A DNA stretch of 64,000 nucleotides, from the NCBI RefSeq assembly GCF_000027125.1, contig NC_017626.1; one strand, written 5' to 3'. The number at the start of each line of letters is the position of its first letter. Positions within the stretch are counted from its first letter, which is position 1. Under the pieces are notes generated by a model that was not told the origin of the DNA, did not search any database, and worked only from the letters and a program-made list of their open reading frames with translations. Source of the DNA: Escherichia coli 042. Its GTDB lineage: Bacteria; Pseudomonadota; Gammaproteobacteria; Enterobacterales; Enterobacteriaceae. The position numbers were made by a program, and so were the translations under genes. Positions 22,997 through 43,638 of the stretch are shown in pieces.

Positions 22997-23368
22997 ACAG
23001 TCTGCCAGGGGAAATGCCTGATTACATTGCGTTAACCAACTGAAAACATGACACAAACACCTCATGCTCCTCCTGTTTCTCTTGCGTGACCGCCTTGCAA
23101 TCAATAGAATAAAACGATCGATAAAACAGGTATCGATCGTTACTATCGATCGTTTATAGTGGTTAATGGTCTGCGAAAAGGCAGCTGAATCTCTTCATCA
23201 TGCAGAACGGAATTGCACACAACGGACTGATACTTCTCTGGCGGATGAGAGAGGGGAAGCATTTATGCCCGGGAAAAACCACTTTATCTGACCATGCTGT
23301 TTTGTACCTGCCGGTATCCACATTTGTGGGTACCGGCTTTTTTATTCACCCTCTGTAAGGAAAAGCTG

Positions 23369-26215
23369 ATGAAACGACATCTGAACACCAGCTACAGGCT
23401 GGTATGGAATCACATTACGGGCACCCTGGTGGTGGCTTCCGAACTGGCGCGCTCACGGGGAAAACGCACCGGTGTGGCGGTTGCGCTGTCTCTTGCTGCT
23501 GTCACGTCAGTCCCGGTACTGGCTGCTGACACGGTCGTACAGGCGGGAGAAACCGTGAGCGGCGGAACACTGACAAATCATGACAACCAGATTGTCTTCG
23601 GTACGGCCAACGGAATGACCATCAGTACCGGTCTGGAGTATGGGCCGGATAACGAGGCCAATACCGGCGGACAATGGATACAAAATGGCGGTATCGCCAA
23701 CAACACTACTGTCACCGGTGGTGGTCTTCAGAGAGTGAATGCCGGAGGAAGCGTTTCAGACACGGTTATCAGTGCCGGAGGCGGACAGAGCCTTCAGGGG
23801 CAGGCAGTGAACACCACTCTGAACGGCGGTGAGCAGTGGGTACATGAAGGCGGGATTGCAACGGGTACCGTCATTAATGAGAAGGGCTGGCAGGCCGTCA
23901 AATCCGGCGCAATGGCAACCGACACGGTTGTGAATACCGGCGCGGAAGGGGGACCGGATGCAGAAAATGGTGATACCGGGCAGTTTGTTCGCGGAAATGC
24001 CGTACGTACCACTATCAATGAAAATGGTCGTCAGATTGTGGCTGCTGAAGGAACAGCAAATACCACTGTGGTTTATGCCGGCGGCGACCAGACGGTACAC
24101 GGGCATGCGCTGGATACCACACTGAATGGCGGTTACCAGTATGTGCACAACGGAGGCACAGCCTCTGACACGGTTGTAAACAGTGACGGCTGGCAGATTG
24201 TCAAGGAAGGTGGTCTGGCGGATTTCACCACCGTTAACCAGAAAGGCAAACTGCAGGTGAACGCCGGTGGTACAGCCACGAATGTCACCCTGAAGCAGGG
24301 AGGCGCACTGGTCACCAGTACGGCGGCAACCGTCACCGGCAGCAACCGTCTGGGCAATTTCACTGTGGAAAACGGTAATGCTGACGGTGTTGTTCTGGAG
24401 TCCGGTGGTCGCCTGGATGTACTGGAGGGCCATTCAGCCTGGAAAACACTGGTGGATGACGGCGGAACCCTGGCAGTGTCTGCCGGTGGTAAGGCAACAG
24501 ATGTCACCATGACATCCGGTAGTGCCCTGATTGCAGACAGTGGTGCCACTGTTGAGGGGACCAATGCCAGCGGTAAGTTCAGTATTGATGGCACATCCGG
24601 TCAGGCCAGCGGACTGCTGCTGGAAAATGGCGGCAGCTTTACGGTTAATGCCGGAGGACTGGCCAGCAACACCACTGTCGGACATCGTGGAACACTGACG
24701 CTGGCTGCCGGGGGAAGTCTGAGTGGCAGAACACAGCTCAGTAAAGGTGCCAGCATGGTACTGAATGGCGATGTGGTCAGTACCGGCGATATTGTTAACG
24801 CAGGGGAGATTCGCTTTGATAATCAGACGACACCGGATGCCGCGCTGAGCCGTGCTGTTGCAAAAGGCGACTCCCCGGTAACGTTCCATAAACTGACCAC
24901 CAGTAACCTCACCGGTCAGGGTGGCACCATCAATATGCGTGTTCGCCTTGATGGCAGCAATACCTCTGACCAGCTGGTGATTAATGGTGGTCAGGCAACC
25001 GGCAAAACCTGGCTTGCGTTTACAAATGTCGGAAACAGTAACCTCGGGGTGGCAACCTCCGGACAGGGTATCCGGGTTGTGGATGCACAGAATGGCGCCA
25101 CCACAGAAGAAGGTGCGTTTGCCCTGAGTCGCCCGCTTCAGGCCGGCGCCTTTAACTACACCCTGAACCGTGACAGCGATGAAGACTGGTACCTGCGCAG
25201 TGAAAATGCTTATCGTGCTGAAGTCCCCCTGTATACATCCATGCTGACACAGGCAATGGACTATGACCGGATTCTGGCAGGCTCCCGCAGCCATCAGACC
25301 GGTGTAAACGGTGAAAATAACAGCGTCCGTCTCAGCATTCAGGGCGGTCATCTCGGTCACGATAACAACGGCGGTATTGCCCGTGGAGCCACGCCGGAAA
25401 GCAGCGGCAGCTATGGCTTCGTCCGTCTGGAGGGTGACCTGCTCAGAACAGAGGTTGCCGGTATGTCTCTGACGACAGGGGTGCATGGTGCCGCAGGCCA
25501 TTCTTCCGTTGATGTTAAGGATGATGACGGTTCCCGCGCCGGCACGGTCCGGGATGATGCCGGCAGCCTGGGCGGATACCTGAATCTGACACACACGTCC
25601 TCCGGCCTGTGGGCTGACATTGTGGCACAGGGAACCCGCCACAGCATGAAAGCGTCATCGGACAATAACGACTTCCGCGCCCGCGGCTGGGGCTGGCTGG
25701 GCTCACTGGAAACCGGTCTGCCCTTCAGTATCACTGACAACCTGATGCTGGAGCCACAACTGCAGTATACCTGGCAGGGACTTTCCCTGGATGACGGCCA
25801 GGATAACGCCGGTTATGTGAAGTTCGGGCATGGCAGTGCACAACATGTGCGTGCCGGTTTCCGTCTGGGCAGCCACAACGATATGAGCTTTGGTGAAGGC
25901 ACCTCATCCCGTGACACCCTGCGCGACAGTGCAAAACACCGTGTGCGTGAACTGCCGGTGAACTGGTGGGTACAGCCTTCTGTTATCCGCACCTTCAGTT
26001 CCCGGGGTGACATGAGCATGGGGACAGCCGCCGCCGGCAGTAACATGACGTTCTCACCGTCCCGGAATGGCACGTCACTGGACCTGCAGGCCGGACTGGA
26101 AGCCCGTGTCCGGGAAAATATCACCCTGGGCGTTCAGGCCGGTTATGCCCACAGTGTCAGCGGCAGCAGCGCTGAAGGTTATAACGGTCAGGCCACGCTG
26201 AATGTGACTTTCTGA
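23369..26215 (+). CDS. flu: antigen 43 (Ag43) self-associating autotransporter adhesin
   Basis: Start at [25 protein letters not shown]; repetitive beta-helix passenger; C-terminal beta-barrel ending ...GQATLNVTF. 948 aa here. Confidence 0.9.
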
Positions 26216-26249: not shown

Positions 26250-26444
26250 ATGACCGGGGCTTTTTACTTTCAGGGAGCAACAGATATGCCGGGTTGTACA
26301 TCACGTTTATTGCCCGAAGGCCCTTTCTCACGCGAACAGGCTGTTGCCGTCAAAACAGCTTACCGCAATGTGTTTACTGAAGATGACCAGGGAACATATT
26401 CCCGGCTGGTTATCCGTAATGCTGAAGGTCAGTTGCGCTGGTGA
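26250..26444 (+). CDS. small conserved prophage protein (DUF905-like, tentative)
   Basis: 64-aa ORF between flu and the DUF932 gene, position typical of CP4-like islands. Confidence 0.4.
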
Positions 26445-26598
26445 TGCCGGAACACAGCTTAATACTCAGCTCGCCAGTTAAGGGCTTCTCAGACAATAAA
26501 CGTCATTCATTTCATCTGTCAGGCCGCGTCTTCTCCGGGAGACGCAGCTTTTTCATTTATTACACCAGTAAATCGTAACCACCGATAAGGAGCAAATT

Positions 26599-27417
26599 AT
26601 GCGACTAGCCAGTCGTTTTGGTTATGCGAACCAGATACGCCGTGACCGTCCGCTGACACACGAAGAACTGATGCACTATGTTCCCAGTATTTTCGGTGAA
26701 GACCGGCATACTTCCCGCAGTAAACGATATGCGTACATTCCCACCATCACCGTACTGGAAAGCCTGCAGCAGGAAGGTTTTCAGCCATTCTTCGCCTGCC
26801 AGACCCGCGTGCGCGACCCGGGCCGCCGGGGATACACAAAACACATGCTGCGTCTGCGGCGGGCCGGAGAGATAAACGGAGAACATGTCCCTGAAATTAT
26901 TCTGCTCAACTCTCATGACGGTACCTCCAGCTACCAGATGCTGCCGGGTTACTTCAGATTCGTCTGCCAGAATGGCTGCGTCTGCGGTCAGTCTCTGGGG
27001 GAAGTGCGTGTTCCACACCGGGGAAATGTGGTGGAGAAAGTTATCGAAGGGGCTTACGAAGTGGTGGGGGTTTTTGACCGGATTGAGGAAAAGCGTGATG
27101 CCATGCAGTCGCTGGTCCTGCCGCCACCGGCACGCCAGGCGCTGGCACAGGCGGCACTGACTTACCGTTATGGTGACGAACATCAGCCAGTCACCACCGC
27201 TGACATTCTGACGCCACGACGCCGGGAGGATTACGGTAAGGACCTGTGGAGTACTTATCAGACCATCCAGGAGAATATGCTGAAAGGCGGGATTTCCGGC
27301 CGCAGTGCAAAAGGAAAACGTATCCACACCCGTGCCATTCACAACATCGACACCGATATTAAGCTCAACCGCGCATTGTGGGTAATGGCAGAAACGCTGC
27401 TGGAGAGCCTGCGCTGA
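26599..27417 (+). CDS. DUF932 / YfjQ-like protein
   Basis: 272-aa MRLASRFGYANQIRRDRPLTHEELMHYVPSIFGEDRH...; recalled as the YfjQ family. Confidence 0.75.
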   Translation: MRLASRFGYANQIRRDRPLTHEELMHYVPSIFGEDRHTSRSKRYAYIPTITVLESLQQEGFQPFFACQTRVRDPGRRGYTKHMLRLRRAGEINGEHVPEIILLNSHDGTSSYQMLPGYFRFVCQNGCVCGQSLGEVRVPHRGNVVEKVIEGAYEVVGVFDRIEEKRDAMQSLVLPPPARQALAQAALTYRYGDEHQPVTTADILTPRRREDYGKDLWSTYQTIQENMLKGGISGRSAKGKRIHTRAIHNIDTDIKLNRALWVMAETLLESLR

Positions 27418-27758
27418 TGCAGCATGTCCCTGAAGGCGTGATTCAGGCACCAGAATCACCCGACGCCCCGGAGGCGCTGCCGGGGTGTCGTTCCATTTCT
27501 GATGATGACCTGTGCGCCTGGTGTACCCGTCTGCTTTACCGTCCCGGAGAAATCAGTCTGTGCAGACTGAGTATACAGGCAATGGCATCTGGCCATCCGT
27601 CTGTGACCGGAACGGTTACGCGTACGGCTGTCCGGAATTTCAGCCGAATATCATTCATCCCTGATATTACCGGGTCATCACGGTCAGTGATGAACGTGAT
27701 GTTGCCAGGTCCCGACCTTTACTCCCTCTCATTTATTCACATTACAAGGATTTCATAC

Positions 27759-28232
27759 ATGAAAACATTGTCTCAGAACACCACCTCTTCGGCCTGTGCA
27801 CCGGAGACTGACCTGCAACAACTGGTTGCCACCCTCGTCCCTGATGAACAGCGCATCAGCTTCTGGCCGCAGCACTTTGGCCTCATTCCACAGTGGGTGA
27901 CCCTGGAGCCCCGTGTCTTCGGCTGGATGGACCGTCTGTGCGAAGACTACTGCGGTGGTATCTGGAATCTGTACACCCTGAACAACGGCGGGGCATTTAT
28001 GGCACCCGAACCGGATGACGATGATGACGAAACATGGGTACTGTTCAATGCCATGAACGGTAACCGCGCTGAAATGAGTCCGGAAGCTGCCGGCATTGCT
28101 GCCTGTCTGATGACGTACAGTCATCATGCCTGTCGTACGGAGTGTTATGCCATGACGGTCCATTATTACCGGCTGCGGGATTACGCCCTGCAGCATCCGG
28201 AATGCAGCGCCATTATGCGCATCATCGACTGA
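27759..28232 (+). CDS. antirestriction protein (KlcA/ArdB-like, YfjX family)
   Basis: Start at MKTLSQNTTSS; 157 aa with acidic stretch EPDDDDDE. Track ORF 27378..28232 is over-extended. Confidence 0.75.
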   Translation: MKTLSQNTTSSACAPETDLQQLVATLVPDEQRISFWPQHFGLIPQWVTLEPRVFGWMDRLCEDYCGGIWNLYTLNNGGAFMAPEPDDDDDETWVLFNAMNGNRAEMSPEAAGIAACLMTYSHHACRTECYAMTVHYYRLRDYALQHPECSAIMRIID

Positions 28233-28724
28233 ATGGAGAGAAGTACAATGCAACAGCTTTCCTTTCTGCCCGGAGAGATGACGCCCGGCGAGCGCAGCCT
28301 CATTCAACGGGCCCTGAAAACCCTGGACCGCCATCTTCATGAACCCGGCGTGGCCTTCACCTCCACCCGTGCGGCACGAGAATGGCTGATTCTGAACATG
28401 GCGGGACTGGAGCGTGAAGAGTTCCGGGTGCTGTATCTGAACAACCAGAATCAGCTGATTGCCGGTGAAACCCTCTTCACCGGCACCATCAACCGCACGG
28501 AAGTCCATCCCCGTGAAGTGATTAAACGCGCCCTGTATCACAATGCCGCTGCTGTGGTGCTGGCACACAATCACCCGTCCGGTGAAGTCACACCCAGCAA
28601 GGCAGACCGCCTTATCACGGAACGTCTGGTACAGGCACTGGGCCTGGTGGATATCCGGGTGCCGGACCATCTGATAGTCGGTGGCAGCCAGGTTTTCTCC
28701 TTTGCCGAACATGGTCTGCTTTAA
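28233..28724 (+). CDS. RadC-like JAB-domain protein (YeeS/YfjY family)
   Basis: JAMM motif HNHPSGEVTPSKADRLIT. Confidence 0.8.
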   Translation: MERSTMQQLSFLPGEMTPGERSLIQRALKTLDRHLHEPGVAFTSTRAAREWLILNMAGLEREEFRVLYLNNQNQLIAGETLFTGTINRTEVHPREVIKRALYHNAAAVVLAHNHPSGEVTPSKADRLITERLVQALGLVDIRVPDHLIVGGSQVFSFAEHGLL

Positions 28725-28786
28725 CCCGTCACAACCACATCACACCTGTTTTCACTTTTATCTTCTGTCTTCAGAGGTATCCCACC

Positions 28787-29008
28787 ATGAAAATCATCAC
28801 CCGTGGCGAAGCCATGCATATTCACCGTCAGCATCCGGCATCCCGTCTTTTTCCGTTCTGTACCGGCAAATACCGCTGGCACGGCAGTGCTGAAGCGTAT
28901 ACCGGTCGTGAAGTGCAGGATATTCCCGGTGTGCTGGCCGTGTTTGCAGAACGCCGTAAGGACAGTTTTGGTCCGTATGTCCGGCTGATGAGCGTCACCC
29001 TGAACTGA
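28787..29008 (+). CDS. DUF987 small protein (YeeT-like)
   Basis: 73-aa MKIITRGEAMHIHRQHPASRLFPFCTGKYRWHG... Confidence 0.6.
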   Translation: MKIITRGEAMHIHRQHPASRLFPFCTGKYRWHGSAEAYTGREVQDIPGVLAVFAERRKDSFGPYVRLMSVTLN

Positions 29009-29170
29009 TGTTCCGTCACCCGGAAAACGAGTACGACTGGCTGAGCTCAGACGCCGCTGTGGATGAGGTCCTGCTCATCAACGAATACACCTTTACCGAA
29101 GCCGGTCTGCGCGCCGGCTGACCCGTCATCGTTAAACTATCATTCACCGATTTTCTGTGAGGATTTTATC

Positions 29171-29539
29171 GTGTCAGACACACTTTCCGGGACAACGCAT
29201 CCCGATGACAATGACGACCATCCCTGGTGGGGACTACCCTGCACAGTGACGCCCTGTTTCGGCGCCCGTCTGGTGCAGGAGGGTAACCGGTTGCATTACC
29301 TTGCCGACCGTGCCGGTATCAGAGGCCGGTTCAGAGATGCGGATGCGTACCCTCTGGACCAGGCCTTTCCGCTGCTGATGAAACAACTGGAATTAATGCT
29401 CACCAGTGGTGAACTGAATCCCCGCCATCAGCATACCGTGACACTGTATGCGAAGGGGCTGACCTGTGAAGCCGACACCCTCGGCTCCTGTGGTTACGTT
29501 TATCTGGCTGTTTATCCGACACCTGAAACGAAAAAGTAA
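29171..29539 (+). CDS. cbeA: CbeA/YeeU-family type IV antitoxin
   Basis: GTG start; [52 protein letters not shown]... close to K-12 YeeU. Confidence 0.8.
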
Positions 29540-29628
29540 ACCACCGGAATAACCTTCTGCTCCGGCCTGGTGTTTTCACCACGCCACTGTCCCATTTTTT
29601 ATCTCTGCATATCAGGAAAATCTTCAGT

Positions 29629-30003
29629 ATGAAAACATTACCCGACACGCATGTACGGGAGGTATCGTGCTGCCCGTCTCCCGTCACCATCTGGCAGACA
29701 CAGCTCACCCGACTGCTGGACCAGCACTACGGCCTTACGCTGAATGACACACCGTTCGTGGATGAACGTGTGATTGAGCAGCATATTGAGGCAGGCATTT
29801 CACTGTGTGACGCGGTGAACTTTCTCGTTGAAAAATACGCGCTGGTACGTACCGACCAGTCGGGATTCAGCGCAGGAGCCTCGTCGCAGTTAATCAACAG
29901 CATTGATATTCTCCGGGCTCGCCGGGCAACAGGCCTGATGACCCGCCACAACTACAGAACGGTGAACAATATCACCCTGGGTAAGTATCCGGAGGCGAAA
30001 TGA
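29629..30003 (+). CDS. cbtA: CbtA/YeeV-family type IV toxin (cytoskeleton-binding)
   Basis: 124-aa [43 protein letters not shown]...; immediately downstream of antitoxin. Confidence 0.8.
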
Positions 30004-30142
30004 TGAAACTGGCCCTGACACTGGAAGCCGACAGTGTTAACGTACAGGCACTGAATATGGGGCGAATTGTCGTTGACATTGATGGTGTTAATCTCGCTGA
30101 ACTGATTAACATGGTCTGCGATAACGGCTACTGGATTTGCCC

Positions 30143-31048
30143 CTATATTTCCAGACACCTGTTATCACTTAACCCATTACTGGCTTGCTGCCGTAGATAT
30201 TCCCGTGGCGAGCGATAACCCAGTGCACTATGCGGATGCCATTCGTTATAATGCTCGAACGCCTCTGCAAGGTTCTTTGCTGCCGTTAACCCGTCTGGTT
30301 TGGGCATGACACTGATGTAGTCACGCTTTATCGTTTTCACGAAGCTCTCTGCTATGCCGTTACTCTCCGGACTCCGCACCGCCGTGTTCTTCGGTTCAGG
30401 CCCCAACATCCGGGCAAACTGCCGTGTTTCATTAGCCCGGTAGCATGAACCATTATCCGTCAGCCACTCTACTGGAGACGCCGGAAGCTCGTTGCCGAAA
30501 CGGCGTTCCACCGCTCCCAGCATGACGTCCTGTACTGTTTCACTGTTGAAGCCGCCCGTAGTGACCGCCCAGTGCAGTGCCTCACGGTCACAGCAGTCCA
30601 GCGCGAACGTGACTCGCAGTTTTTCTCCGTTATCACAGCGGAACTCGAACCCGTCAGAGCACCATCGCTGATTACTTTCTTTCACAGCCACTCTGCCGGT
30701 ATGTGCCCGTTTCGATGGCGGTACAGCGGGTTTTCGCTCAAGCAACAGCGCATTCTGGCGCATGATCCGGTAAATACGTTTGGCATTGATCGCAGGCATA
30801 CCATCAAGTTCGGCCTGTCTACGAAGCAGCGCCCATACCCGACGATAACCATATGTGGGCAGCTCTCCGATAACATGGTGTATACGGAGAAGCACATCCG
30901 TATCATCTGAGTGACGGCTGCGGCGACCATCTTTCCAGTCATCGGTTCGTCTGAGAATGACGTGCAACTGCGCACGCGACACCCGGAGACAACGGCTGAC
31001 TAAGCTTACTCCCCATCCCCGGGCAATAAGGGCGCGTGCGCTATCCAC
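30143..31048 (-). CDS. insD: IS2 transposase OrfB (InsD)
   Basis: 301-aa integrase-core transposase. Confidence 0.9.
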
Positions 31049-31416
31049 TTTTTTGCACGCCCATATTCAACGGCTTCTTTAAGGAGTTCATTTTCCATCG
31101 TTTTTTTGCCGAGCAGGCGCTGGAGTTCTTTAATCTGCTTCATGGCGGCAGCAAGTTCAGAGGCAGGAACGACCTGTTCTCCTGCGGCCACAGCAGTAAG
31201 ACTTCCCTCCTGGTATTGCTTGCGCCAGAGAAATAACTGGCTGGCTGCCACACCGTGTTGCCGGGCAACAAGGGAGACTGTCATTCCCGGTTCAAAACTC
31301 TGCTGAACAATAGCGATCTTTTCCTGTGTAGTACGCCGTCTGCGTTTCTCCGGTCCTAAGACATCAATCATCTGCTCTCCAATGACTAGTCTAAAAACTA
31401 GTATTAAGACTATCAC
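31006..31416 (-). CDS. insC: IS2 OrfA (InsC)
   Basis: Helix-turn-helix ...[47 protein letters not shown]... Confidence 0.9.
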
Positions 31417-32929: not shown

Positions 32930-35821
32930 ATGATTGGTACAACACCTTATCATGCGAAATATTTTGCGCATGAACTTTCCATTCTTCATTCAAACAATGG
33001 GGTGGACCGTCTGTCTCAATCGCTGTTTGATGCAAGCGTAGATCTAAACCCTCATCAAATTGAGGCGGCTCTTTTTGCTATCGAAAATCCGCTAAGCAAA
33101 GGTGTTGTGCTTGCCGATGAAGTTGGTTTGGGTAAAACCATTGAAGCTGGACTAGTGCTTTGCCAGTTGTGGGCTGAAAGAAAACGTAAACTGTTGATCA
33201 TTTGTCCTGCTTCACTGCGTCGCCAATGGGCGAGCGAGTTACAGGAAAAGTTCAATCTACCTTCTCAGGTGTTGGACGCGAAAATGTATAGCCAGCTTCA
33301 AAAAGAAGGGATCCATAATCCCTTAAATAATAAATCGATCACTATCATGTCATACCACTATGCTGCTCGGTTAGAAGAGAAATTGGTGGCTGAAATGTGG
33401 GATCTGGTTGTTATCGACGAAGCCCATAAACTGCGTAATGCTCATCGAGAAAGCAACAAAATGGGGCAAGCGTTAAAGCGTGCGCTTGATGGGCGGAAGA
33501 AATTACTACTGACCGCAACGCCTTTACAGAACTCGTTGATGGAACTGTATGGCATGTCGACGCTTATAGATGAACATACCTTCGGCGAAGTTAAAGCGTT
33601 CAGAAAGCAATATATGCAGGCAGATAGCGATATTGCGGAGTTGAAGGGGCGATTGTCGCGTTTTATCAAACGAACTCTACGCAAGAATGTGCTGGAGTAT
33701 ATCAAGTATACAGAACGTAAAGCGATCACTATTCCTTTCTATCCGAGCGAACAGGAGCAGGATCTTTATGAACGCGTACAAAAATTGCTTGAACGTGAGG
33801 ATAGCTATGCCTTACCAAAACGACACCGGCATCTGACGGGGCTTATACTCAGAAAACTACTTTCCTCAAGTACGAAAGCCGTATTGAATAACTTGCAGAT
33901 CCTTAAGACTCGTTTAGAAAGGTTAAAGCTGGAAGGTATCGTTGAAGATGATATGGACATCATCCAACAGATCATAATGGATGATGATCTTGAAGATGAC
34001 ATCGTTGAAGATGCCGAATCAGTAGCGCCAGATACAGAGTGCAAATCTGTGGATTCAGATGCGCTTCAGGCAGAAATCAATGAGCTGGAATCACTCATTG
34101 TCAAAGCAGAACAGATTGGCACTGATACCAAATCAAAAGAGTTGCTTTCTGGCCTGGAGCAAGGTTTTGCACAGCTTGCCGAAATGGGGGCTGCAAAAAA
34201 AGTCATCATCTTCACGGAGTCGATGCGAACTCAACAGTACCTTGCACATTTTCTGGAAAACAATGGCTACCAGGGAAAAGTAGTAACCTTTAGTGGCACA
34301 AACAATACACCGCAGGCAAACAAGATCTACCAGCAATGGCGCGAGGAATATCAGGGATCTTCTCGTATTACCGGGTCGGCGCAAATTGATAAACGCTCGG
34401 CTTTGATCGACCACTTCAAAGATCATGCTGAAATCATGATAGCTACAGAAGCTGCAGCTGAAGGGGTGAACCTGCAATTTTGTTCGCTACTGATCAATTA
34501 CGATTTCCCCTGGAACCCACAACGCATTGAACAGCGTATTGGACGTTGTCACCGATACGGGCAAAAATTTGATGTGGTTGTTATTAACTTCCTCAATCAG
34601 CGAAACCAGGCCGATCAACGCGTTCTTGAACTCTTAACTGAAAAGTTCAGCCTGTTTGATGGCGTGTTTGGCGCATCGGATAGTGTGCTTGGCAGCATAG
34701 AAAATGGTGTGGATTTTGAAAAAAGGATCCAGTCAATTTATGAGTCATGCCGTACCCCCGAGGAGATAGAGCTGGCTTTTGAAAGGTTGCAGAAAGAGCT
34801 GGAAGATGAAATCAATCTCAAGATGCAGAAGACGCAAGAACAGTTGCTTGAGCATTTTGATGAAGATATTCACGATATCCTTAAAATAAGGCTTGATGAA
34901 GCTCGGGAGCGCCTGGATAAAGTCGGTCGTTGGTTTTGGGCCGTGACCTGTCAGCAGCTCAAACAATATGCTGATTTTGATCATGAGCATCATCGTTTCA
35001 CTTTACGTGAATCAGTCAATGAACTGCCTGTCGGGCAGTACCAGCTGTTGCGCAAAGATGGCAGGCAAAATAGTGCGTTACAAATGCAGGATCACCACAG
35101 TTTTGCATATCGGATCAATCATCCGCTGGGTGAGTACGTCATTGAGGGAGCCAAAGCCCAGGAGACGAAAACAGCTGAAGTCATCTTCGATTACAGTAAC
35201 CACACAACGAAAGTTTCGGTGGCTGAGCAGCTGAAAGGGCAATCAGGATGGTTAACACTAAATTTGCTTACTGTTGATGCGTTTAACAGGCAGCAATTTT
35301 TAGTCTTTACCGCGAAAACTGACAACGGACGTGTGGTAGATGGTGAAGCTTGTAAACGTCTGTTCAACTTGTCTGCAATAACCAACGAAAAGCTGGATAA
35401 TTCGGCAAGTTTAGATGCATTACCTGATGACTTGATCTTACTCAAGAACAGGCAAATTGACGCCAGGCTTGCAGAAGTTTTGGAGCAGAACTATGTCCTT
35501 TTTGAAGCGGAAAGAGATAAGCTGGAAAAATGGGCTGAAGACATGATCTTTGCGGCGGAAGAAGCATTACGCGATACCAAAATGCAAATCAAGTCGTTGA
35601 AGCGAGAAGCCAGGCTGGCGCAATCGATCGAAGAACAAAAGCAAAACCAGGAAAAGCTTAAGCTACTGGAACGGCAGCAGAAGCGTCAACGTATGGAAAT
35701 TTTTGACATTGAAGATGAGATCGCCGACAAGAGGGATGAACTCATCAGTGCCCTTGAAGAGCGGATGAAGCAAAAGACGGATATCACCGAGCTGTTTACC
35801 ATCCGCTGGAAAGTTATTTAA
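32930..35821 (+). CDS. SNF2-family ATPase, RapA/HepA-like, short N-terminus
   Basis: 963 aa. Motif I LADEVGLGKTIEAG, motif II VVIDEAHKLRN, motif III LLLTATPLQN, motif VI QRIGRCHRYGQ; C-terminal coiled-coil-like region. Several blocks resemble RapA; RapA N-terminal domains absent. Confidence 0.85.
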   Translation: MIGTTPYHAKYFAHELSILHSNNGVDRLSQSLFDASVDLNPHQIEAALFAIENPLSKGVVLADEVGLGKTIEAGLVLCQLWAERKRKLLIICPASLRRQWASELQEKFNLPSQVLDAKMYSQLQKEGIHNPLNNKSITIMSYHYAARLEEKLVAEMWDLVVIDEAHKLRNAHRESNKMGQALKRALDGRKKLLLTATPLQNSLMELYGMSTLIDEHTFGEVKAFRKQYMQADSDIAELKGRLSRFIKRTLRKNVLEYIKYTERKAITIPFYPSEQEQDLYERVQKLLEREDSYALPKRHRHLTGLILRKLLSSSTKAVLNNLQILKTRLERLKLEGIVEDDMDIIQQIIMDDDLEDDIVEDAESVAPDTECKSVDSDALQAEINELESLIVKAEQIGTDTKSKELLSGLEQGFAQLAEMGAAKKVIIFTESMRTQQYLAHFLENNGYQGKVVTFSGTNNTPQANKIYQQWREEYQGSSRITGSAQIDKRSALIDHFKDHAEIMIATEAAAEGVNLQFCSLLINYDFPWNPQRIEQRIGRCHRYGQKFDVVVINFLNQRNQADQRVLELLTEKFSLFDGVFGASDSVLGSIENGVDFEKRIQSIYESCRTPEEIELAFERLQKELEDEINLKMQKTQEQLLEHFDEDIHDILKIRLDEARERLDKVGRWFWAVTCQQLKQYADFDHEHHRFTLRESVNELPVGQYQLLRKDGRQNSALQMQDHHSFAYRINHPLGEYVIEGAKAQETKTAEVIFDYSNHTTKVSVAEQLKGQSGWLTLNLLTVDAFNRQQFLVFTAKTDNGRVVDGEACKRLFNLSAITNEKLDNSASLDALPDDLILLKNRQIDARLAEVLEQNYVLFEAERDKLEKWAEDMIFAAEEALRDTKMQIKSLKREARLAQSIEEQKQNQEKLKLLERQQKRQRMEIFDIEDEIADKRDELISALEERMKQKTDITELFTIRWKVI

Positions 35822-35826
35822 TTGAT

Positions 35827-38800
35827 TTGAAAGAGAAAATAATGAGTAAGTACAACGAATTAGTTAAGAAGTTAAAAGAAATTTTTCAGATTGATCGACC
35901 AGAACTGGATTTCGGTATTTATCGTATTTTAAATGCACGTGCTGATGAAATTAACGACTATCTGGATAATAAGCTGAAGGCCAAAATCCAGTCTGCGCTG
36001 GCGGATGCAGGAAATGCCAATAAATCAGAATTAGAACATCAGTTGCAACTGACAATAAAAGCGGCAACTGATGCGGGTGTAGACCCTGCTGATAGCCCAA
36101 AAGTACAGGAGCTTAAAAAGCAACTGGCGGCTATGGCATCCGGAGCAAATGAGCATGAAAATGCAGTATTTTCCCATCTGCTCACTTTCTTTTCGCGTTA
36201 TTATGACAACGGCGATTTTATCAGCAAACGCCGTTATAAAGGTAATACCTACGCCATCCCCTATTCTGGCGAAGAAGTGATGTTGCACTGGGCAAATAAG
36301 GACCAGTACTACATTAAAAGCGGTGAAAACTTCGCTAATTATTCGTTCAAATTAGAAGACGGTCGTAAAGTTAGCTTTAAATTGCTCGCAGCGGACACAG
36401 CAAAAGATAACCGTAAAGATAATGAATTAGATCGCTGCTTTGTACTTATTGAGCCGCATGTTCGTACCAAAATTGATGAAGAAGGCGATGAGTACGAACA
36501 AGAATATAAGCCAGTAGAAGTGGTGAAAACTTCATCTGTGGTTGACGGTAAACTCGTTGAAACAGAAGAGTTAGTTATTCATTTCGAATATAAGGCAATG
36601 AAAAAGGGCACTAAGCAGGATGCTTTAGTGCAGTCCGCTATTTCAAAAATTCTGGCTGATAAAACAGTACAACAGCATTGGGTTGATCTTGCTAAACGTG
36701 CGCCAACCGAAAAAAATCCGTCACGTACAGAGTTGGAGCGTCATTTAACAACATATACCCAACGTAATACGGCTGACTACTTTATTCATAAAGATCTCGG
36801 TGGCTTTTTAACGAACGAACTGGATTTTTATATTAAAAATGAAGTAATGAATCTCGATAATGTGCAAAATGCAGAAGTGTTTGCTAATATTGAGAAACAA
36901 CTGCGCATGATTCAATGTTTGCGTGCTGTTGCGCTGGAACTCATCACTTTTTTGGCACAGATTGAGAATTTCCAAAAGAAACTTTGGACTAAGAAAAAGT
37001 TTGTTGTAGAGACAAACTATATATTTACCGTAGATAAGTTACCAGAGGAATTATATTCAATTGTCATTAAGAATGATGCCCAATGGGAACAATGGAAGCA
37101 ATTAGGTTTCCTCAGCGATTTTTCGGGAGATAGAGAGAAAACTCTGAAAGAAAAACAAGGGTTAATTGTTGATACTTCATTATTTGATTCCAAGTTCAAA
37201 GAGAAATTTATCAACAATATCGCTGATGTTGACACAAATGTTTCCGCTTATTTATATAGTGGAGATAATTATCAAGTGTTAAATCTTATTAAAATAAAAT
37301 ATAATAATAAAGTTGATGGTATATATATAGATCCACCTTATAATACCAATGCGTCTGAGATTTTATACAAAAACGGTTATAAGGATAGCTCATGGTGTTC
37401 TTTAATGAGTTCTCGTTTAGAGATAAGTAAATCCTTATTAAAAGAAAATGCAGCTACTTGTACAACTATTGATGAGTATGAAGTTGCTAATTTGGAATTA
37501 TTGCTAAAAGAAACGTTTACAGGATATCAAATCAGACCTGTTGTTATTGAATATAACCATCGAGGACGAGTTAAAAGTAATTTCGCTATTACCCATGAAT
37601 ATGCTTTATGGACCTTACCAGAAAATAAAGATGTAATATCGAGACAAGTTGAAATATCAGAAGAAATTAGGCGTAACTTGCGTAGAACTGGTTCAGGTTC
37701 TACTCGTGCCGAATCTGAAAGTCAATTTTATGGCATCGAAGTTGACAATAATACCCTCGAGATTGTCAATGTAACCGAAGCTTTACCAAGTTTAGATTCA
37801 GCAATTCCTACGCATCTAAATAAAGATACAACAATGGTATGGCCAGTAGATGACCAAGGGGTTGAGCGGCGCTGGTACTATGGGCGAGATCGTGTTATTC
37901 GCGAAGCTAAAGAAGGTACTGTTTGGGCGAAAAGAATAAAAGGTGAGATACAAATACATTACAGACAAGCAGGAAAACCTAAAATGCGTAAATCTGTATG
38001 GATTGGTCCAAAGCTTGACGCAAGTACCTATGGTTCGGAACTATTAAATAGTTTGTTTAACGTGACTCAGATTAATTTTTCTTTTCCAAAAAGTATTTAT
38101 GCGGTTAAGGAATGTTTAGAGTCGCTTAGTAATTCGAAGTATGCTCATTTCTTAGACTATTTTGCTGGCTCTGGTACTACAGGGCATGCAGTGGTAGATA
38201 TGAATAGGGATGATAATGGTTTTCGAAAATTTAGCTTGGTCGAACAAGGTGAATATTTTTATTCTGTTACCTTGCCTAGAGTAAAAAAAGCTATTTTTAC
38301 AACTGATTGGAAGTATGGAAAAGCACTAAGCTGTAATCCAGTTGAGCAGACATTAATAAAATATATTAAAATTGAGAGTTTTGAGGATACTCTTAACAAT
38401 ATAGCACTGAAACGTACTGAAACAACAAAGGATCTTTTCGACGATCTTAAAGAAATTCGAGAGGATTATGTTCTTAACTATATGCTTGAAACAGAAAGCA
38501 AAGGCTCACTACTCAATACTGATAATTTCAAAAAACCATTTAACTACGAAATGGATGTTACAACGGATTCCGCAGGTGCTACTGAGCGTAAGAACATCGA
38601 TTTAGTTGAAACTTTCAACTATCTCATTGGCTTACATGTGAAATCCATCGAATCCAATATCGAACGTGGCTATGTGCGTGTTGAAGGAACGCTACCAACT
38701 GGCGAGCGTACCCTTATTCTGTGGCGCGATTGCGACAAGATCGGCTATGAAGAATTGAATAAATATGCCAACAGATTCGATTTATATGCAAAAGAAAATA

Positions 38801-38946
38801 CGTTCGACGTTATCTATATCAATGGCGATCATAACTTACCTACCGCCTTTACCGTTGATGAAGAAGACGGCGAGATTGTTCGTAGCCTGAAAATCCGCCA
38901 GATCGAACCTGAATTCTTGAACCTGATGTTTGCGGAGGAGGTTTAA
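35827..38946 (+). CDS. DNA methyltransferase, N6-adenine/N4-cytosine (beta-class order), Type III Mod-like with N-terminal extension
   Basis: 1039 aa. Motif IV DPPY (IYIDPPYNT, about 37330) precedes motif I FxGxG (DYFAGSGTTG, about 38160), with a roughly 290-aa variable region between; about 500 aa of unrecognised N-terminal sequence. 6-nt gap after SNF2 gene. Confidence 0.8.
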   Translation: MKEKIMSKYNELVKKLKEIFQIDRPELDFGIYRILNARADEINDYLDNKLKAKIQSALADAGNANKSELEHQLQLTIKAATDAGVDPADSPKVQELKKQLAAMASGANEHENAVFSHLLTFFSRYYDNGDFISKRRYKGNTYAIPYSGEEVMLHWANKDQYYIKSGENFANYSFKLEDGRKVSFKLLAADTAKDNRKDNELDRCFVLIEPHVRTKIDEEGDEYEQEYKPVEVVKTSSVVDGKLVETEELVIHFEYKAMKKGTKQDALVQSAISKILADKTVQQHWVDLAKRAPTEKNPSRTELERHLTTYTQRNTADYFIHKDLGGFLTNELDFYIKNEVMNLDNVQNAEVFANIEKQLRMIQCLRAVALELITFLAQIENFQKKLWTKKKFVVETNYIFTVDKLPEELYSIVIKNDAQWEQWKQLGFLSDFSGDREKTLKEKQGLIVDTSLFDSKFKEKFINNIADVDTNVSAYLYSGDNYQVLNLIKIKYNNKVDGIYIDPPYNTNASEILYKNGYKDSSWCSLMSSRLEISKSLLKENAATCTTIDEYEVANLELLLKETFTGYQIRPVVIEYNHRGRVKSNFAITHEYALWTLPENKDVISRQVEISEEIRRNLRRTGSGSTRAESESQFYGIEVDNNTLEIVNVTEALPSLDSAIPTHLNKDTTMVWPVDDQGVERRWYYGRDRVIREAKEGTVWAKRIKGEIQIHYRQAGKPKMRKSVWIGPKLDASTYGSELLNSLFNVTQINFSFPKSIYAVKECLESLSNSKYAHFLDYFAGSGTTGHAVVDMNRDDNGFRKFSLVEQGEYFYSVTLPRVKKAIFTTDWKYGKALSCNPVEQTLIKYIKIESFEDTLNNIALKRTETTKDLFDDLKEIREDYVLNYMLETESKGSLLNTDNFKKPFNYEMDVTTDSAGATERKNIDLVETFNYLIGLHVKSIESNIERGYVRVEGTLPTGERTLILWRDCDKIGYEELNKYANRFDLYAKENTFDVIYINGDHNLPTAFTVDEEDGEIVRSLKIRQIEPEFLNLMFAEEV

Positions 38947-38948
38947 GA

Positions 38949-41900
38949 ATGGCTAAAAAACCGACCACCGGTAAAGCAGTTAAAAAAGAGACTAACAGCA
39001 AGCTGAGCTTTCATAAGCAGTTGGTTTTAAACCGCTTTATGTTCCATTTTTTTAAAGATGGCACATTGCAAGGTTTGAAGAATCGGTTAGGCGAGGATCG
39101 CTTTGAAGGCATCCATGAAGATGGCCAAAGCTTATTCTTCCATGAGCTGAGTAACTATTTATTCGAGGTCGATCTTATCGATCTCGATGAACTGCGTCGT
39201 TACGATCTCAATATCGTGCAGCACTGGCAGCAGATAACCGAGCACCGTAATCGTAAAGAAGACACAGTGCTGAACATGAAATATTTTCAGTACTTGTCGC
39301 TTCTGTTTACCGAGATCTACCTGGACTGGTACTTCAACCGTAAACAGCAATTACTCGATGGGCTAAATAACGAGCTGGCAGCATACAATGCTGAAAATGA
39401 TAAAACAGCAAAAGACCGGGCTAATCAGTTCAAATCATACGTTCTGGATGATTTGAATAAACTGGCATACTGGAACGCTACTGGTTCTGGTAAGACACTG
39501 CTATTACATGTCAATATTTTGCAATATTTACATTATTTCCAGAACGGTAATAGCCATCATTACCCGGATAAAATCATCCTGCTTACGCCGGATGAACGCC
39601 TATCGAAGCAACATTTAGATGAACTGGAAAACTCAGGATTTACCCAATACCAGTTATTCGATAAGAGTAAATCCGCGCCATTTAAAGGCACGATTGAAGT
39701 TATTGATATCAATAAACTTGCCGATGAAATGGGTGACAAAACTGTTGCCGTTGAGGCATTTGAAGGCAACAATCTGGTCTTGATTGATGAAGGGCATAAA
39801 GGCACAGGAAGTGCTGCTGGTGCCTGGATGCGCCGTCGTGACAAATTAACGCGTGACGGATTTGCGTTTGAATATTCAGCAACTTTTGGCCAGGCAGTGG
39901 CCGGTGGCAATAATGTTGAGGCAGTTGAAACAGAAATTCAGAAGAAAAAAGCAAAGCTGCTTTTTGAAACAACTGCCTTAGGTAAACTGAGCGAAGAACA
40001 GTTAGCGCAAATAGCATTAACCAGCGAAGAACAACGTGATGCGCGTATTCAGGCGACACGAGAAGTCTATGGGAAATCGATTCTGTTCGATTACTCCTAT
40101 AAATTCTTCTATGAGGATGGTTATGGTAAAGAATCACTGATTCTTAACCTTAATCCTGAAGAGGATAAAAAAGATGAGCGTCGGTATGAGTATTTTACCG
40201 CGTGTTTGCTCAGCTTTTATCAGCAACAATATTTATTCAATAAGAATAAAGAAAAATTAAATGAATTTAATATCGAAAAACCGCTATGGGTTTTTGTCGG
40301 TAACACCGTAAGTGGTGAAGATTCAGACATTCACGCAGTACTGCGTTTTTTAGCATGGTTTTTAAATCATGAATCGCAGGCAAAATCGTGGATTAAAGAT
40401 CTCATTGAAAATAAAGCGCGAATTCTTGATACCAAAGAGCGTAACATTTTTGAAAATCGCTTTACCGCACTAATGAACGGCCCGGAAGATATCTACGCAG
40501 ATATTCTTTCTCGTTTGTTTAACACCACTCACTCAGGTCAGAGACTGCGAGTTCTGAATTTAATAGGCAGTAAAGGTGAACTGGCATTACAGGTTGGTGA
40601 GGCCGAACCGTTTGGTCTTATCAATATTGGTGATGCACCGTCTCTTTACAAAATGTGTGAAGAGGATACGACATTTGATTATCAGAGAGATGATTTTGCG
40701 AAGTCACTCTTTCATACGTTAAATGACAAAGACTCGCAACTACATATTTTGATCGGCTCGCGAAAATTTACTGAAGGCTGGAGCAGTTGGCGCGTCTCAA
40801 CGATGGGATTGCTCAATATGGGCCGTGGAGAAGGTTCACAGATCATTCAGTTATTTGGTCGTGGCGTTCGCCTTAAAGGTCGCAATTATTCTTTGAAACG
40901 CAGTACACCCGGTGAGCGTCCGAAAGGGTTGCATCTGGAAAAATTAGAGACACTGAATGTATTCGGTGTACGTGCCGATTACATGGCAACCTTTAAACAA
41001 TACCTGGAAGATGAAGGGATTACGCCAAGTGACGAGATCCTTGAGCTGAATTTTGAAACTCGGCCAAATATGCCAGCAACCAGGCTTAAAACACTTAAGC
41101 TTAAAGATGGTTATAAAGATAATCAAAGACTCGGCTTTAAACGTGTCTATTTTCCCGAATTGTATGAAGTTCCTGCTGATTTTCAGGGGAAAATTAAGCA
41201 GCCGCATATTAAGCTGGACCTATACCCGAAACTTGAGTCGATTGATACCAGCAGAAAAGGGGACAATACTCCGGTTAACGTGCGTAATGAAGCGAAGTTA
41301 GATTATAAAATCATTAGTGCGTTTGATTTTGATCGGCTTTATCTCGCCATTCAGAATTATAAACTACAACGCGGCTGGTCAAATTTACGTGTGGATAAAC
41401 AACGTTTGATCGACTTTTGTACCGGTAAGACAAAGATCGGAAATAGTTGGTATACCCTTTTGATTCCAGCTTCAGAGCTTGAGATTAAGCAATATGCAGA
41501 TATTGCTAAGCAGGAAGATATTATGCTTCGTCTGCTGACTGATTATACTGATCGCTTTTACAACACATTGAAAAATGCTTATGAAGGTCAGTTTTATGAA
41601 GTCACGCAGGTGAAAGAAGATGATCCTGGTATGATCAAAATGTACCATTTCGAGATCGAAGAAACTGATGATGGGTTGGCATATGCCAGTCGGCTGGAAC
41701 AATTACAACAATTGGTCATCGACGGCGAAATCGGTAAAGCAAAATCCTGGAGTGCATCCGGGATGGTTGCTATTACCTTTGATAAACATCTCTATTATCC
41801 ACTTCTTTCGATTGAAAAAAATGCCAACATACCGCTAAAAATGCGACCGGCAGCACTGGGTGCATCAAGTGAGATTACTTTTGTCCATGATCTTCAGTCT

Positions 41901-42329
41901 TTTGTTGATTCGACAAAAGGGCAGAAAATTATTGGTGATAAAAGTTTATATCTGCTAAGAAATGCGGATTCTAAAAATAGAGGCCTGGGCTTTGCTACTG
42001 CGGGTAATTTTTATCCGGATTTCTTATTGTGGTTAGTCGATGATAAAAGTGGTAAACAATGGTTAAGTCTTATTGATCCAAAAGGCATCCGCAATCTTAA
42101 TCTTGATGATCCAAAGTTCGGATTATATAAAGAAATCAAGAATCTTGAACATAAATTATCGGATGATAACTTATCATTAAGTGCATTTATTGTTTCTGAA
42201 ACTTGTTATGTTGACTTAGTAAACGTACCTGATTCAAAAGAGAATCTGGAAGCCAGAAATGTGCTTTTTATTGAGGATACTGGCTCATTGTATCTGGAGA
42301 AATTATTCAGTAAGATGGTTAGCGAGTAA
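38949..42329 (+). CDS. SF2 helicase with C-terminal PD-(D/E)xK-like motif, Type III Res-like
   Basis: 1126 aa. Walker A NATGSGKT, DExH LIDEGHKG, SAT, QLFGRGVRLKG; C-terminal YPDFLLWLVDDKSGKQWLSLIDPKG. Start 2 nt after methyltransferase stop. Confidence 0.8.
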   Translation: MAKKPTTGKAVKKETNSKLSFHKQLVLNRFMFHFFKDGTLQGLKNRLGEDRFEGIHEDGQSLFFHELSNYLFEVDLIDLDELRRYDLNIVQHWQQITEHRNRKEDTVLNMKYFQYLSLLFTEIYLDWYFNRKQQLLDGLNNELAAYNAENDKTAKDRANQFKSYVLDDLNKLAYWNATGSGKTLLLHVNILQYLHYFQNGNSHHYPDKIILLTPDERLSKQHLDELENSGFTQYQLFDKSKSAPFKGTIEVIDINKLADEMGDKTVAVEAFEGNNLVLIDEGHKGTGSAAGAWMRRRDKLTRDGFAFEYSATFGQAVAGGNNVEAVETEIQKKKAKLLFETTALGKLSEEQLAQIALTSEEQRDARIQATREVYGKSILFDYSYKFFYEDGYGKESLILNLNPEEDKKDERRYEYFTACLLSFYQQQYLFNKNKEKLNEFNIEKPLWVFVGNTVSGEDSDIHAVLRFLAWFLNHESQAKSWIKDLIENKARILDTKERNIFENRFTALMNGPEDIYADILSRLFNTTHSGQRLRVLNLIGSKGELALQVGEAEPFGLINIGDAPSLYKMCEEDTTFDYQRDDFAKSLFHTLNDKDSQLHILIGSRKFTEGWSSWRVSTMGLLNMGRGEGSQIIQLFGRGVRLKGRNYSLKRSTPGERPKGLHLEKLETLNVFGVRADYMATFKQYLEDEGITPSDEILELNFETRPNMPATRLKTLKLKDGYKDNQRLGFKRVYFPELYEVPADFQGKIKQPHIKLDLYPKLESIDTSRKGDNTPVNVRNEAKLDYKIISAFDFDRLYLAIQNYKLQRGWSNLRVDKQRLIDFCTGKTKIGNSWYTLLIPASELEIKQYADIAKQEDIMLRLLTDYTDRFYNTLKNAYEGQFYEVTQVKEDDPGMIKMYHFEIEETDDGLAYASRLEQLQQLVIDGEIGKAKSWSASGMVAITFDKHLYYPLLSIEKNANIPLKMRPAALGASSEITFVHDLQSFVDSTKGQKIIGDKSLYLLRNADSKNRGLGFATAGNFYPDFLLWLVDDKSGKQWLSLIDPKGIRNLNLDDPKFGLYKEIKNLEHKLSDDNLSLSAFIVSETCYVDLVNVPDSKENLEARNVLFIEDTGSLYLEKLFSKMVSE

Positions 42330-42341
42330 ATAAATATGATT

Positions 42342-42374
42342 CTGCTCCATATCTCTGTGAGATATGGAGCAGAT
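42342..42374. terminator. hairpin between convergent genes (candidate bidirectional terminator)
   Basis: Inverted repeat CTGCTCCATATCTC / GAGATATGGAGCAG at 42342-42374, between stop of 38949..42329 (+) and stop of 42376..42678 (-). Confidence 0.55.
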
Positions 42375-42375: not shown

Positions 42376-42678
42376 TTATCGCCAATGTGCAGGAATAATT
42401 AAGTCAAACGATTTTGCTGCATATTCAAGCATTTTTATTATTTCCCGGTGTCGTTCCTGGTCGAAAGACTGTCCATTTTTTCTACACTCTATAATCCCTT
42501 GTAATTCTTTTAGGTTAAACATATCAAGAAGATATAAATTTTTCCAGGTTGGTTGCCCGAAGAGGTTATAGACTGTTTCCGTAGCATCTCGTTCACTTGC
42601 TAATCTTTTCTCTCCTTCTATTCTTTCAAAAAATATTTCAGCTGTTTCTTTATCATCATAAGTATTTAATAATTCCAT
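42376..42678 (-). CDS. hypothetical protein (100 aa)
   Basis: AT-rich ORF convergent with the helicase gene; no family recognised. Confidence 0.4.
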   Translation of the reverse strand: MELLNTYDDKETAEIFFERIEGEKRLASERDATETVYNLFGQPTWKNLYLLDMFNLKELQGIIECRKNGQSFDQERHREIIKMLEYAAKSFDLIIPAHWR

Positions 42679-42990
42679 TATGATTTTCCTGATTAATGAA
42701 TTGATATCACGATAATTATATCATGAATAGATGTAAATTTACTATGTATATAAATTAATGTACAGTTCAACATGCTAATTATTTTTTAATTTGTAATGTC
42801 GATTGGTTAATAATTGGATTCTCTTATAATGAATATATATTTACTCTGACTAGAATATTTGTAAACGTGTTTTATATTGAGATTTTAAAATTGATTTATG
42901 GCTATGTACTCATAAATAATACTTTCGGTGTCAGAAAATACTTTATCTATTACATTTAAAATTCTAGGTGAAAGATATATAATGGTTACC

Positions 42991-43484
42991 TCACCCCCTA
43001 AAAAACTCTTTCCGATACCACTCTACAACCCCCTCAAAAGGGTAATTTTTACGCACCTGTGGCAACGCAATAATTTTTCCGTCAAAATCCCAGAATGACC
43101 TCTCAATGATCTCTCCGCCGTTTACCGCATCCAATACCAGTACCCGCATATTTTCATCCAGGCCAATCGTTCCTTTATCAAAGGCTTTATGATGTATCGC
43201 GCAAAGCGCCAGGCCATTGGGAATTTCACAAGGGCCACCATGTTGTTTCCATTTTATATGTGTCGCTTCCAGTGAGACGGTGGAGTTGCCGTAACAAATA
43301 TTAAAGCTACATATTGCGCACTGGTAGTTATAAGCGCGTAATACATGTTTGCGAAATAATGGGTCACGCTGCTTACGGATTTGCTGGAGAGCAAAAAAAG
43401 GCTCGTCAGCGATTTACTGGAAGCCATTGATATCCCTGGCAGTGAAATAATTGCGATCATGCTCGCAAATTTTCTGCGGTTCAA
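42991..43484 (-). pseudogene. HNH-nuclease-like gene, frameshifted
   Basis: Minus-strand frame ending at 42991 reads ...YNYQCAICSFNICYGNSTVSLEATHIKWKQHGGPCEIPNGLALCAIHHKAFDKGTIGL... but has no start; the ATG at 43484 is in another frame. Frames meet near the A7 run at about 43391-43399. Confidence 0.5.
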
Positions 43485-43638
43485 GCCTGCAAGCGAAGAT
43501 ATATTACCTTGATCTCATATGTTTTTTTACTTCCTGTGTGCCCTAATTGCCATGCGATGTTGCACCGACGCAAACCACCGTTTACGCCGGAGGAGTTAAA
43601 AGCGCTGATGGATGCGAATAAATCAAATTAATGAACGC

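Follow-up and report, generated by a model that had tools for sequence, protein, structure and literature searches.

A conserved PD-(D/E)xK motif at the C-terminus of a Res-like helicase encoded in a Type III-like operon of Escherichia coli 042

Type III restriction-modification systems are encoded by two genes, mod and res. Enzymes of the EcoP15I type possess a hemimethylating Mod subunit and need ATP to cleave DNA; they recognise two unmethylated sites in inverse orientation and cut at a distance of 25–27 bp from one of them. Another defence system to be compared here, ARMADA, is defined by a YprA-like helicase (DUF1998), a BrxHII-like SNF2 protein and a PglX-like methyltransferase (10.1101/2025.09.15.676423). 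The operon described in this work lies in a 64,000-nucleotide stretch of the Escherichia coli 042 genome (NC_017626.1, assembly GCF_000027125.1), the whole of which is hereafter called the window. Its three genes encode a SNF2-family helicase, a Mod-like N6-adenine DNA methyltransferase and a Res-like superfamily 2 (SF2) helicase–nuclease (Table 1; hereafter SNF2, Mod and Res). A first-pass annotation, made from the sequence alone, had marked a candidate PD-(D/E)xK nuclease motif at the C-terminus of Res.

In our view, residues ~940–1126 of Res are a catalytically competent PD-(D/E)xK domain, and Res itself is the Res-like restriction subunit of a Type III-like operon acquired by horizontal transfer; we assign this reading a probability of roughly 0.8. 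The predicted active site would draw E975 from helix α1, D1024 from the beginning of strand β2, D1043 and K1045 from β3, and K1056 from the next helix. In the proposed mechanism, the Mod-like β-class methyltransferase would mark self DNA and most likely also supply sequence recognition, while the SF2 motor of Res would use ATP to move or communicate along DNA. Unmodified DNA would be cut by the C-terminal domain via a metal bound by the acidic residues, and the DrmD-like SNF2 translocase would be the third conserved partner of the system.

Conservation of the motif in relatives of Res

The peptide quoted in the first-pass annotation, GNFYPDFLLWLVDDKSGKQWLSLIDPKG, is present as given and corresponds to residues 1019–1046 of the product of the open reading frame (ORF) 38949..42329 (+), i.e. 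to nt 42003–42086, inside the interval nt 41990–42100 assigned to it. The distance between D1024 and D1043 is 19 residues, close to the "about 20" claimed. The annotation did not mention a second DPK at positions 1054–1056; its lysine, K1056, exceeds K1045 in conservation.

As a bare string, PD...[DE]xK in Res is within chance expectation: when the residues of the protein were shuffled 5000 times, 36% of the shuffles contained one or more copies of the pattern PD-x(10-30)-[DE]xK, as would be the case if the motif were a chance string of neither structural nor functional meaning. With hydrophobic strand context added, however, the pattern appears in only 0.9% of the shuffles. The motif is raised above chance by its near-absolute conservation in relatives down to 32% identity, together with the predicted secondary-structure positions and the fold matches described below, and we regard a chance origin as practically negligible.

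When the C-terminal 226 aa were used as a query, hundreds of homologs were retrieved; a profile search of 1.84 billion cluster representatives produced 1291 clusters at E ≤ 1e-3. Conservation was assessed in a full-length set (65 representatives with 32–59% identity to the query; 66 sequences including the query), in a wider set of 143–145 cluster representatives spanning the nuclease region, and in 78 loci, one per species, obtained from a scan of 100,044 genomes independently of the cluster set. Nine positions of the last 190 residues are invariant in the full-length set: P951, E975, F978, N1005, P1023, D1024, W1028, P1044 and K1056. Averaged over columns, identity in the whole-protein alignment of this set is just 29%, so the conservation of the predicted active site is selective.

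The glutamate E975 is found in all sequences of every set (66/66 full-length, 145/145 clusters, 78/78 loci), and both prolines of the motif, P1023 and P1044, are present in 66/66 full-length sequences and 143/143 clusters. D1024 is conserved in 66/66 full-length sequences, 142/143 clusters and 77/77 loci, and K1056 in 66/66, 141/142 and 77/77, respectively. Position 1043 is always acidic (D61/E5 in 66 full-length sequences; D134/E9 in 143 clusters), and position 1045 is occupied by lysine or histidine and nothing else (K56/H10 and K118/H25 in the same sets). The full E...PD...DPK...K pattern is found in 77 of the 78 species loci, the other one being gapped in this region. A separate feature of the alignment is that eight of the nine Glu-1043 sequences carry His-1045, with K1056 retained in all.

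The His-1045 variants are scattered among K-bearing nearest neighbours, so the substitution of K1045 arose repeatedly; all ten full-length variants of this kind retain K1056. The pattern seen at D1043-P1044-K1045 and K1056 suggests a coupled, tunable active-site pair. The R1004-N1005 dipeptide may contact a phosphate or DNA near the active site.

The residues of the PD and DPK motifs had been proposed as the best targets for mutagenesis. This holds for D1024 and D1043, but K1045 is a less certain choice, being replaceable by histidine, and E975 and K1056 were omitted. The latter two are conserved as much as D1024, D1043 and K1045 or more, and should therefore join the list. Taken together, E975, D1024, D1043, K1045 and K1056 provide a conservation-based list of candidate knock-out targets for restriction in an uncharacterised system; ~3.5% of complete E. 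coli genomes possess it, as do many Salmonella and hundreds of other species.

Table 1. Coordinates of the operon genes, Res motifs and associated features in the window
Feature	Position	Strand	Remarks
Gene 1, SNF2-family helicase, DrmD/BrxHII-like, 963 aa	32930..35821	+	
Gene 2, Mod-like N6-adenine DNA methyltransferase, 1034 aa from ATG	35842..38946	+	frame open from TTG 35827
Gene 3, Res-like SF2 helicase–nuclease, 1126 aa	38949..42329	+	start 2 nt after mod stop codon
Res motif I (Walker A) GSGKT, aa 179–183	39483..39497	+	at least 97% conserved in 66 relatives
Res motif II DEGH, aa 280–283	39786..39797	+	
Res motif III SAT, aa 310–312	39876–39884	+	
Res motif VI QLFGRGVR, aa 634–641	40848..40871	+	
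Predicted C-terminal PD-(D/E)xK nuclease domain, aa ~940–1126, last ~190 residues	41766..42326	+	
E975, predicted motif-I glutamate, core helix α1	41871..41873	+	
R1004-N1005, end of core strand β1	41958..41963	+	R in 144/145 and N in 145/145 clusters; both in 78/78 loci
P1023-D1024, PD motif, N-terminus of core strand β2; predicted metal-binding aspartate	42015..42020	+	
Q1037, start of core strand β3	42057..42059	+	141/144 clusters; 76/77 loci
D1043-P1044-K1045, (D/E)xK motif, end of core strand β3	42075..42083	+	
K1056, N-terminus of second core helix; candidate additional or alternative active-site lysine	42114..42116	+	
Hairpin with perfect 15-bp stem, between res stop and convergent ORF 42376..42678 (100 aa)	42341..42373	.	

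Predicted fold of the nuclease domain

In the PD-(D/E)xK superfamily, an aspartate stands where strand 2 begins, while strand 3 carries (D/E)xK and helix 1 a glutamate (PMC3424549). Structure prediction, proposed in the first-pass annotation as a check, places the residues of Res in the same way. Two AlphaFold2 (AF2) models were built, one of residues 901–1126 (predicted local distance difference test score, pLDDT, of 68) and one of the full-length protein based on 66 sequences (pLDDT 89.6; predicted template modelling score, pTM, of 0.81). Both agree on the core assigned by DSSP: helix 973–987, strands 999–1004, 1025–1030 and 1037–1043, helix 1055–1070 and strand 1075–1083. E975 falls within the first helix, R1004-N1005 closes the first strand, D1024 immediately precedes the second, D1043 closes the third with K1045 two residues further, and K1056 opens the second helix. 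The predicted core is thus of the α-β-β-β-α-β restriction-endonuclease topology, with the modelled residues in the canonical PD-(D/E)xK places.

The modelled domain is structurally similar to solved members of the superfamily, with fold matches to Cfr10I, BsaWI, Can2, SgrAI, Bse634I, AgeI, BsoBI, Vsr, PfoI and SdaI. The best Foldseek match, the restriction enzyme BstEII, is weak (E 0.01), and the Foldseek result alone is not significant. Type III Res is represented among the fold-search matches by a single chain, from the EcoP15I structure 4ZCF, in which the nuclease domain is disordered (PMC4490356).

The domain constitutes a previously unmodelled family within the PD-(D/E)xK superfamily. In NCBIfam, the only match, at 0.06, was to the BPTD_3080 family. 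A search of the PDB with the nuclease-domain profile (Res aa 970–1050, ~41856–42098) returned marginal matches, not significant (E 0.03), to 7w5z_6L, an 88-aa chain labelled "decapping nuclease" from ciliate respiratory complexes, in which PEF pairs with PDF and DPKG with DPKG.

The place of K1056 at the N-terminus of helix 1055–1070, right after β3, raises the possibility that the nuclease is active with K1056 as its catalytic lysine. This would make the site a "PD-(D/E)xx...K" variant whose lysine has migrated, and K1045 an auxiliary residue (e.g., for phosphate contact or pKa tuning) that histidine could replace. Such an arrangement agrees with the higher conservation of K1056 (141/142 clusters against K118/H25 at position 1045) and with its retention in the ten full-length His variants. 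There is also a precedent: the lysine of 1y0k and the glutamate of Cfr10I have migrated to the second core helix (PMC3424549), and the Cfr10I group includes the best structural neighbours of the domain studied here. However, the canonical place of the lysine is β3, and the fact that 143 clusters admit nothing but K or H at position 1045 speaks for a chemical role of this residue as well; we find it unlikely that K1056 takes over catalysis in this way, and prefer the predicted site with both K1045 and K1056 described above.

A further alternative is that the nuclease fold is catalytically dead and serves as a DNA-binding or protein-docking module, with cleavage performed by another protein. Large defence helicases commonly contain nuclease domains that have been inactivated (10.1101/2025.09.15.676423), and the canonical lysine of Res varies between K and H. 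Decayed sites, however, would show the opposite of what is seen here, where three acidic positions and K1056 are essentially invariant in more than 140 clusters and across many phyla. In addition, the three operon-encoded proteins yielded no nuclease domain other than this one, and we judge a dead domain to be very improbable.

Several observations weigh against a competent Type III-like nuclease. Pfam searches at E ≤ 10 with the C-terminal domain of the query and of 32 diverse relatives returned only noise, and sequence searches of the PDB gave nothing meaningful, whether run with the entire protein, with the family profile or with the profile of the nuclease domain. The placement of the E975, D1024 and D1043 carboxylates in one site is a prediction from the model topology, and the canonical lysine is not strictly required, as K1045 is replaced by His in ~17% of clusters. 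Comparison with EcoP1I Res by hhalign, both full-length and between nuclease-domain profiles, yielded a probability of 2–5% with motif-level pairings only (DEGH...ATF with EcoP1I DEPH...ATF; FYPDF with EcoP1I YSPDF). In the full-length fold search, generic Swi2/Snf2 and UvsW motors rank above EcoP15I Res, and the presence of the SNF2 protein means that the mechanism may differ from that of classical Type III enzymes. Finally, the literature searched contained no description of the SNF2-Mod-Res family and no experiment on any of its members.

The operon, its neighbourhood and distribution

The first-pass annotation placed the motif C-terminal to an SF2 helicase core, and this core is readily recognised in Res by intact motifs I, II, III and VI (Table 1) and by a match to Pfam ResIII (E 4.5e-8). 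Within motif VI, residues Q634, F636, G637, R638, V640 and R641 are invariant in 66 relatives. The PADLOC model REase_III (PDLC03654) spans residues 3–1124 with 2318 bits. In the full-length model, Res additionally possesses a helical domain of ~165 aa at its N-terminus, and ~280 aa are inserted between the RecA lobes.

Mod matches Pfam N6_N4_Mtase (2.2e-16) and, over its full length, the PADLOC model MTase_III PDLC03646 (1624 bits), along with 13 other MTase_III models; no PglX/DrmMI match was found for it in PADLOC. Its DPPY (aa 497) precedes FAGSGTT (aa 774), which is the β-class order, and both motifs are intact. Large N- and C-terminal extensions of the protein have no Pfam match. The SNF2 protein retains intact GLGKT (66), DEAH (163), TAT (195) and QRIGRCHR (535) motifs and matches Pfam SNF2-rel_dom (1.3e-36) and Helicase_C (2.9e-20), as well as PADLOC DrmD PDLC02619 (4.9e-198); no Pfam match was obtained for its C-terminal ~290 aa. 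The segments without Pfam matches correspond to 34943–35818 (SNF2 C-terminus), 35842–37221 and 38317–38943 (Mod N- and C-termini), 38949–39443 (N-terminal helical domain of Res) and 39900–40700 (inter-lobe insertion of Res), and several of them hold invariant residues, e.g., Res Q114, E122, D390, K394 and D460.

The gene neighbourhood was analysed in 80 loci from Proteobacteria, Chlorobi, Verrucomicrobia, Planctomycetes, Actinomycetota, Acidobacteria, Spirochaetes, Bacillota, Thermotogae, Bacteroidota and Campylobacterota. In 55 of 58 evaluable loci, res directly follows a gene for a Mod homolog in the same orientation, and a SNF2 homolog stands beside Mod-Res on the same strand in 45 of 50. 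The SNF2-Mod-Res order was observed in 39 loci, and SNF2 is absent from four or five. Metagenomic relatives have the same layout with exceptions: one is a plain Mod-Res pair, and in one a UvrD/PDDEXK_1 helicase replaces SNF2.

Some loci depart from this arrangement. SNF2 is encoded downstream of res (Mod-Res-SNF2) in 5–6 loci of Pasteurellaceae, Neisseria and Cardiobacterium (L032, L035, L037, L038, L039, L062). One relative with 38% identity and an E-P-H motif variant (P0302; L006 4028-13777) has a Res with a C-terminal Peptidase_S24 fusion, and its locus encodes a UvrD-type helicase with a PDDEXK_1 domain where the SNF2 gene would be. In about a quarter of related loci, 1.1–3.7 kb of unrelated defence-type genes separate mod from res (L014, L019, L021, L022, L031, L034, L044, L053, L054, L060, L065, L071, L072, L079, L082). 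These inserts include genes for a YhcG/DUF1016 PDDEXK nuclease, an AAA_21 ATPase, Fic, SLFN AlbA_2 with HATPase_c_4, and AIPR. Hitch-hiking defence genes seem to have a hotspot at the mod-res junction, as is known of Type I loci.

The family is present in at least 498 species from many phyla. Among complete E. coli genomes, the operon is found in 190 of 5426 (~3.5%), and it is abundant in Salmonella. All three genes are intact in the window. Inactivated E. coli copies were also encountered: in a sequence type (ST) 648 locus (L001 8893-11998), mod is split into two coding sequences by a frameshift, and in H1 (strain 11A20CPO008) an IS1 element interrupts res.

In E. coli 042, the operon resides in a CP4-type island adjoining nanS/nanM/nanC, and its GC content is 37–44%, versus 52–55% in adjacent island DNA. 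No tRNA gene that would mark an island boundary was found in the window. The hairpin downstream of res, scored on the minus strand (one found versus 0.1 expected in shuffles), probably marks the end of the operon and acts as a bidirectional terminator. The left flank (22061–31050) is also of the CP4 type and encodes a YeeP-like GTPase, an Ag43-like autotransporter (23294..26215), a DUF932 protein, a JAB/RadC protein, an antirestriction protein and the toxin-antitoxin pair YeeU(CbeA)/CbtA, and its DUF5983 gene carries an IS3 insertion. On the other side, at ~42990–43630, RefSeq annotation of a near-identical ST648 locus records two remnants, a phosphorothioated-DNA-binding restriction endonuclease and an HNH endonuclease, both truncated, suggesting earlier defence cargo at this site.

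Comparison with known restriction and defence systems

The nearest structural neighbours of the nuclease domain, Type IIP/IIF enzymes of the Cfr10I/NgoMIV/Bse634I/BsaWI/SgrAI/AgeI/BstEII group, are stand-alone, sequence-specific endonucleases with 8–13% identity to the Res domain. In Res, by contrast, the domain forms the tail end of a motor that depends on ATP, and it keeps the acidic residue on β3. Type ISP enzymes (LlaBIII, LlaGI) differ in having an N-terminal nuclease and in the fusion of methyltransferase and target-recognition domains into the same chain.

The SNF2 gene invites comparison with DISARM and ARMADA. As in DISARM class 1 (DrmD, DrmMI, DrmA, DrmB, DrmC), a gene for a DrmD-like SNF2 protein is followed by an adenine methyltransferase gene, but the nuclease is PD-(D/E)xK here and PLD there. 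Membership in DISARM class 1 was rejected, as no DUF1998 (DrmB), PLD (DrmC) or DrmA match was found in the operon or its neighbours. The operon shares more with ARMADA type II (ArmA SNF2, ArmB methyltransferase, ArmC helicase–nuclease, ArmD), namely the gene order, a helicase ending in a PD-(D/E)xK-superfamily nuclease, a DrmD/BrxHII-like SNF2 protein and residence in E. coli defence islands. However, ARMADA combines a YprA-like DUF1998 helicase with a Vsr-type nuclease and a PglX-like methyltransferase, whereas the operon of E. coli 042 encodes a ResIII-like helicase without DUF1998 and a Mod-like N6_N4_Mtase, and no ArmD. Membership was rejected in this case too, since the helicase matches only ResIII/REase_III and the methyltransferase only Mod-type models.

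Short of membership, the operon could still be a DISARM/ARMADA-like defence rather than a classical Type III one, i.e., a module of SNF2 and methyltransferase with a helicase–nuclease effector, whose nuclease would degrade invading DNA lacking the methyl mark without the two-site collision of EcoP15I. The DrmD-like SNF2 protein that accompanies Mod-Res across phyla is in line with this, as are the gene order of ARMADA type II, whose helicase also has a nuclease of the PD-(D/E)xK superfamily at its end, there of the Vsr type (10.1101/2025.09.15.676423), and the substitution of a UvrD/PDDEXK_1 helicase for SNF2 in one relative. Yet Res lacks the DUF1998/YprA signature and has REase_III as its sole PADLOC match, Mod is of the Mod-like β class and not PglX/DrmMI-like, no DrmA/B/C or PLD gene is adjacent, and a minority of loci encode Mod-Res only. 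On balance, we find a defence of this type rather doubtful and return to a Type III-like operon as the preferred reading.

Likeness to Type III Res, noted already in the first-pass annotation, stands with respect to architecture, the upstream mod gene and the PADLOC REase_III match, but does not extend to sequence homology with EcoP1I Res detectable beyond short motifs, or to the PF19778 domain. Like the Res proteins of EcoP1I and EcoP15I, the protein of E. coli 042 combines an SF2 DExH motor, a spacer and a C-terminal PD-(D/E)xK nuclease, and the local motifs resemble each other (ATAGNFYPDF-x18-DPK here, AGGYTYSPDF-x17-ETK in EcoP1I). Its gene is directly preceded, on the same strand, by one for a β-class N6-adenine Mod, the system has no S subunit, and both REBASE-derived PADLOC models and older NCBI names class the family as Type III. 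On the other hand, Pfam PF19778 (RE_endonuc), which matches the C-terminus of EcoP1I Res with 4.1e-26, matches neither the query nor any of the 32 diverse relatives at E ≤ 10, and 4ZCF was never recovered in PDB sequence searches. Both the N-terminal domain and the inter-lobe insertion of Res set it apart from Type III Res, Mod is ~400 aa longer, and the conserved SNF2 gene is a third component in addition to the two-gene mod-res plan. The family is thus supported as Type III-like in architecture, without a sequence relation to EcoP1I/EcoP15I Res detectable beyond the short motifs.

Given the conserved SNF2 partner, the "Type III" labels attached to this family seem to hide a three-component system. 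We tentatively propose, as a possibility short of probable, that Mod-Res and SNF2 form an obligate three-component restriction class distinct from the EcoP15I type and found in at least 498 species of many phyla. Such a class would be an evolutionary or functional bridge from Type III restriction-modification to DISARM/ARMADA, and would use a variant E-PD-(D/E)x(K/H)...K site in a family that no domain database models. To specialists, the nuclease motif itself is ordinary; of greater interest is a by-product of the analysis, the three-component architecture, which is conserved and uncharacterised. The mechanism of SNF2-Mod-Res could inform that of the SNF2-plus-methyltransferase modules of DISARM and ARMADA.

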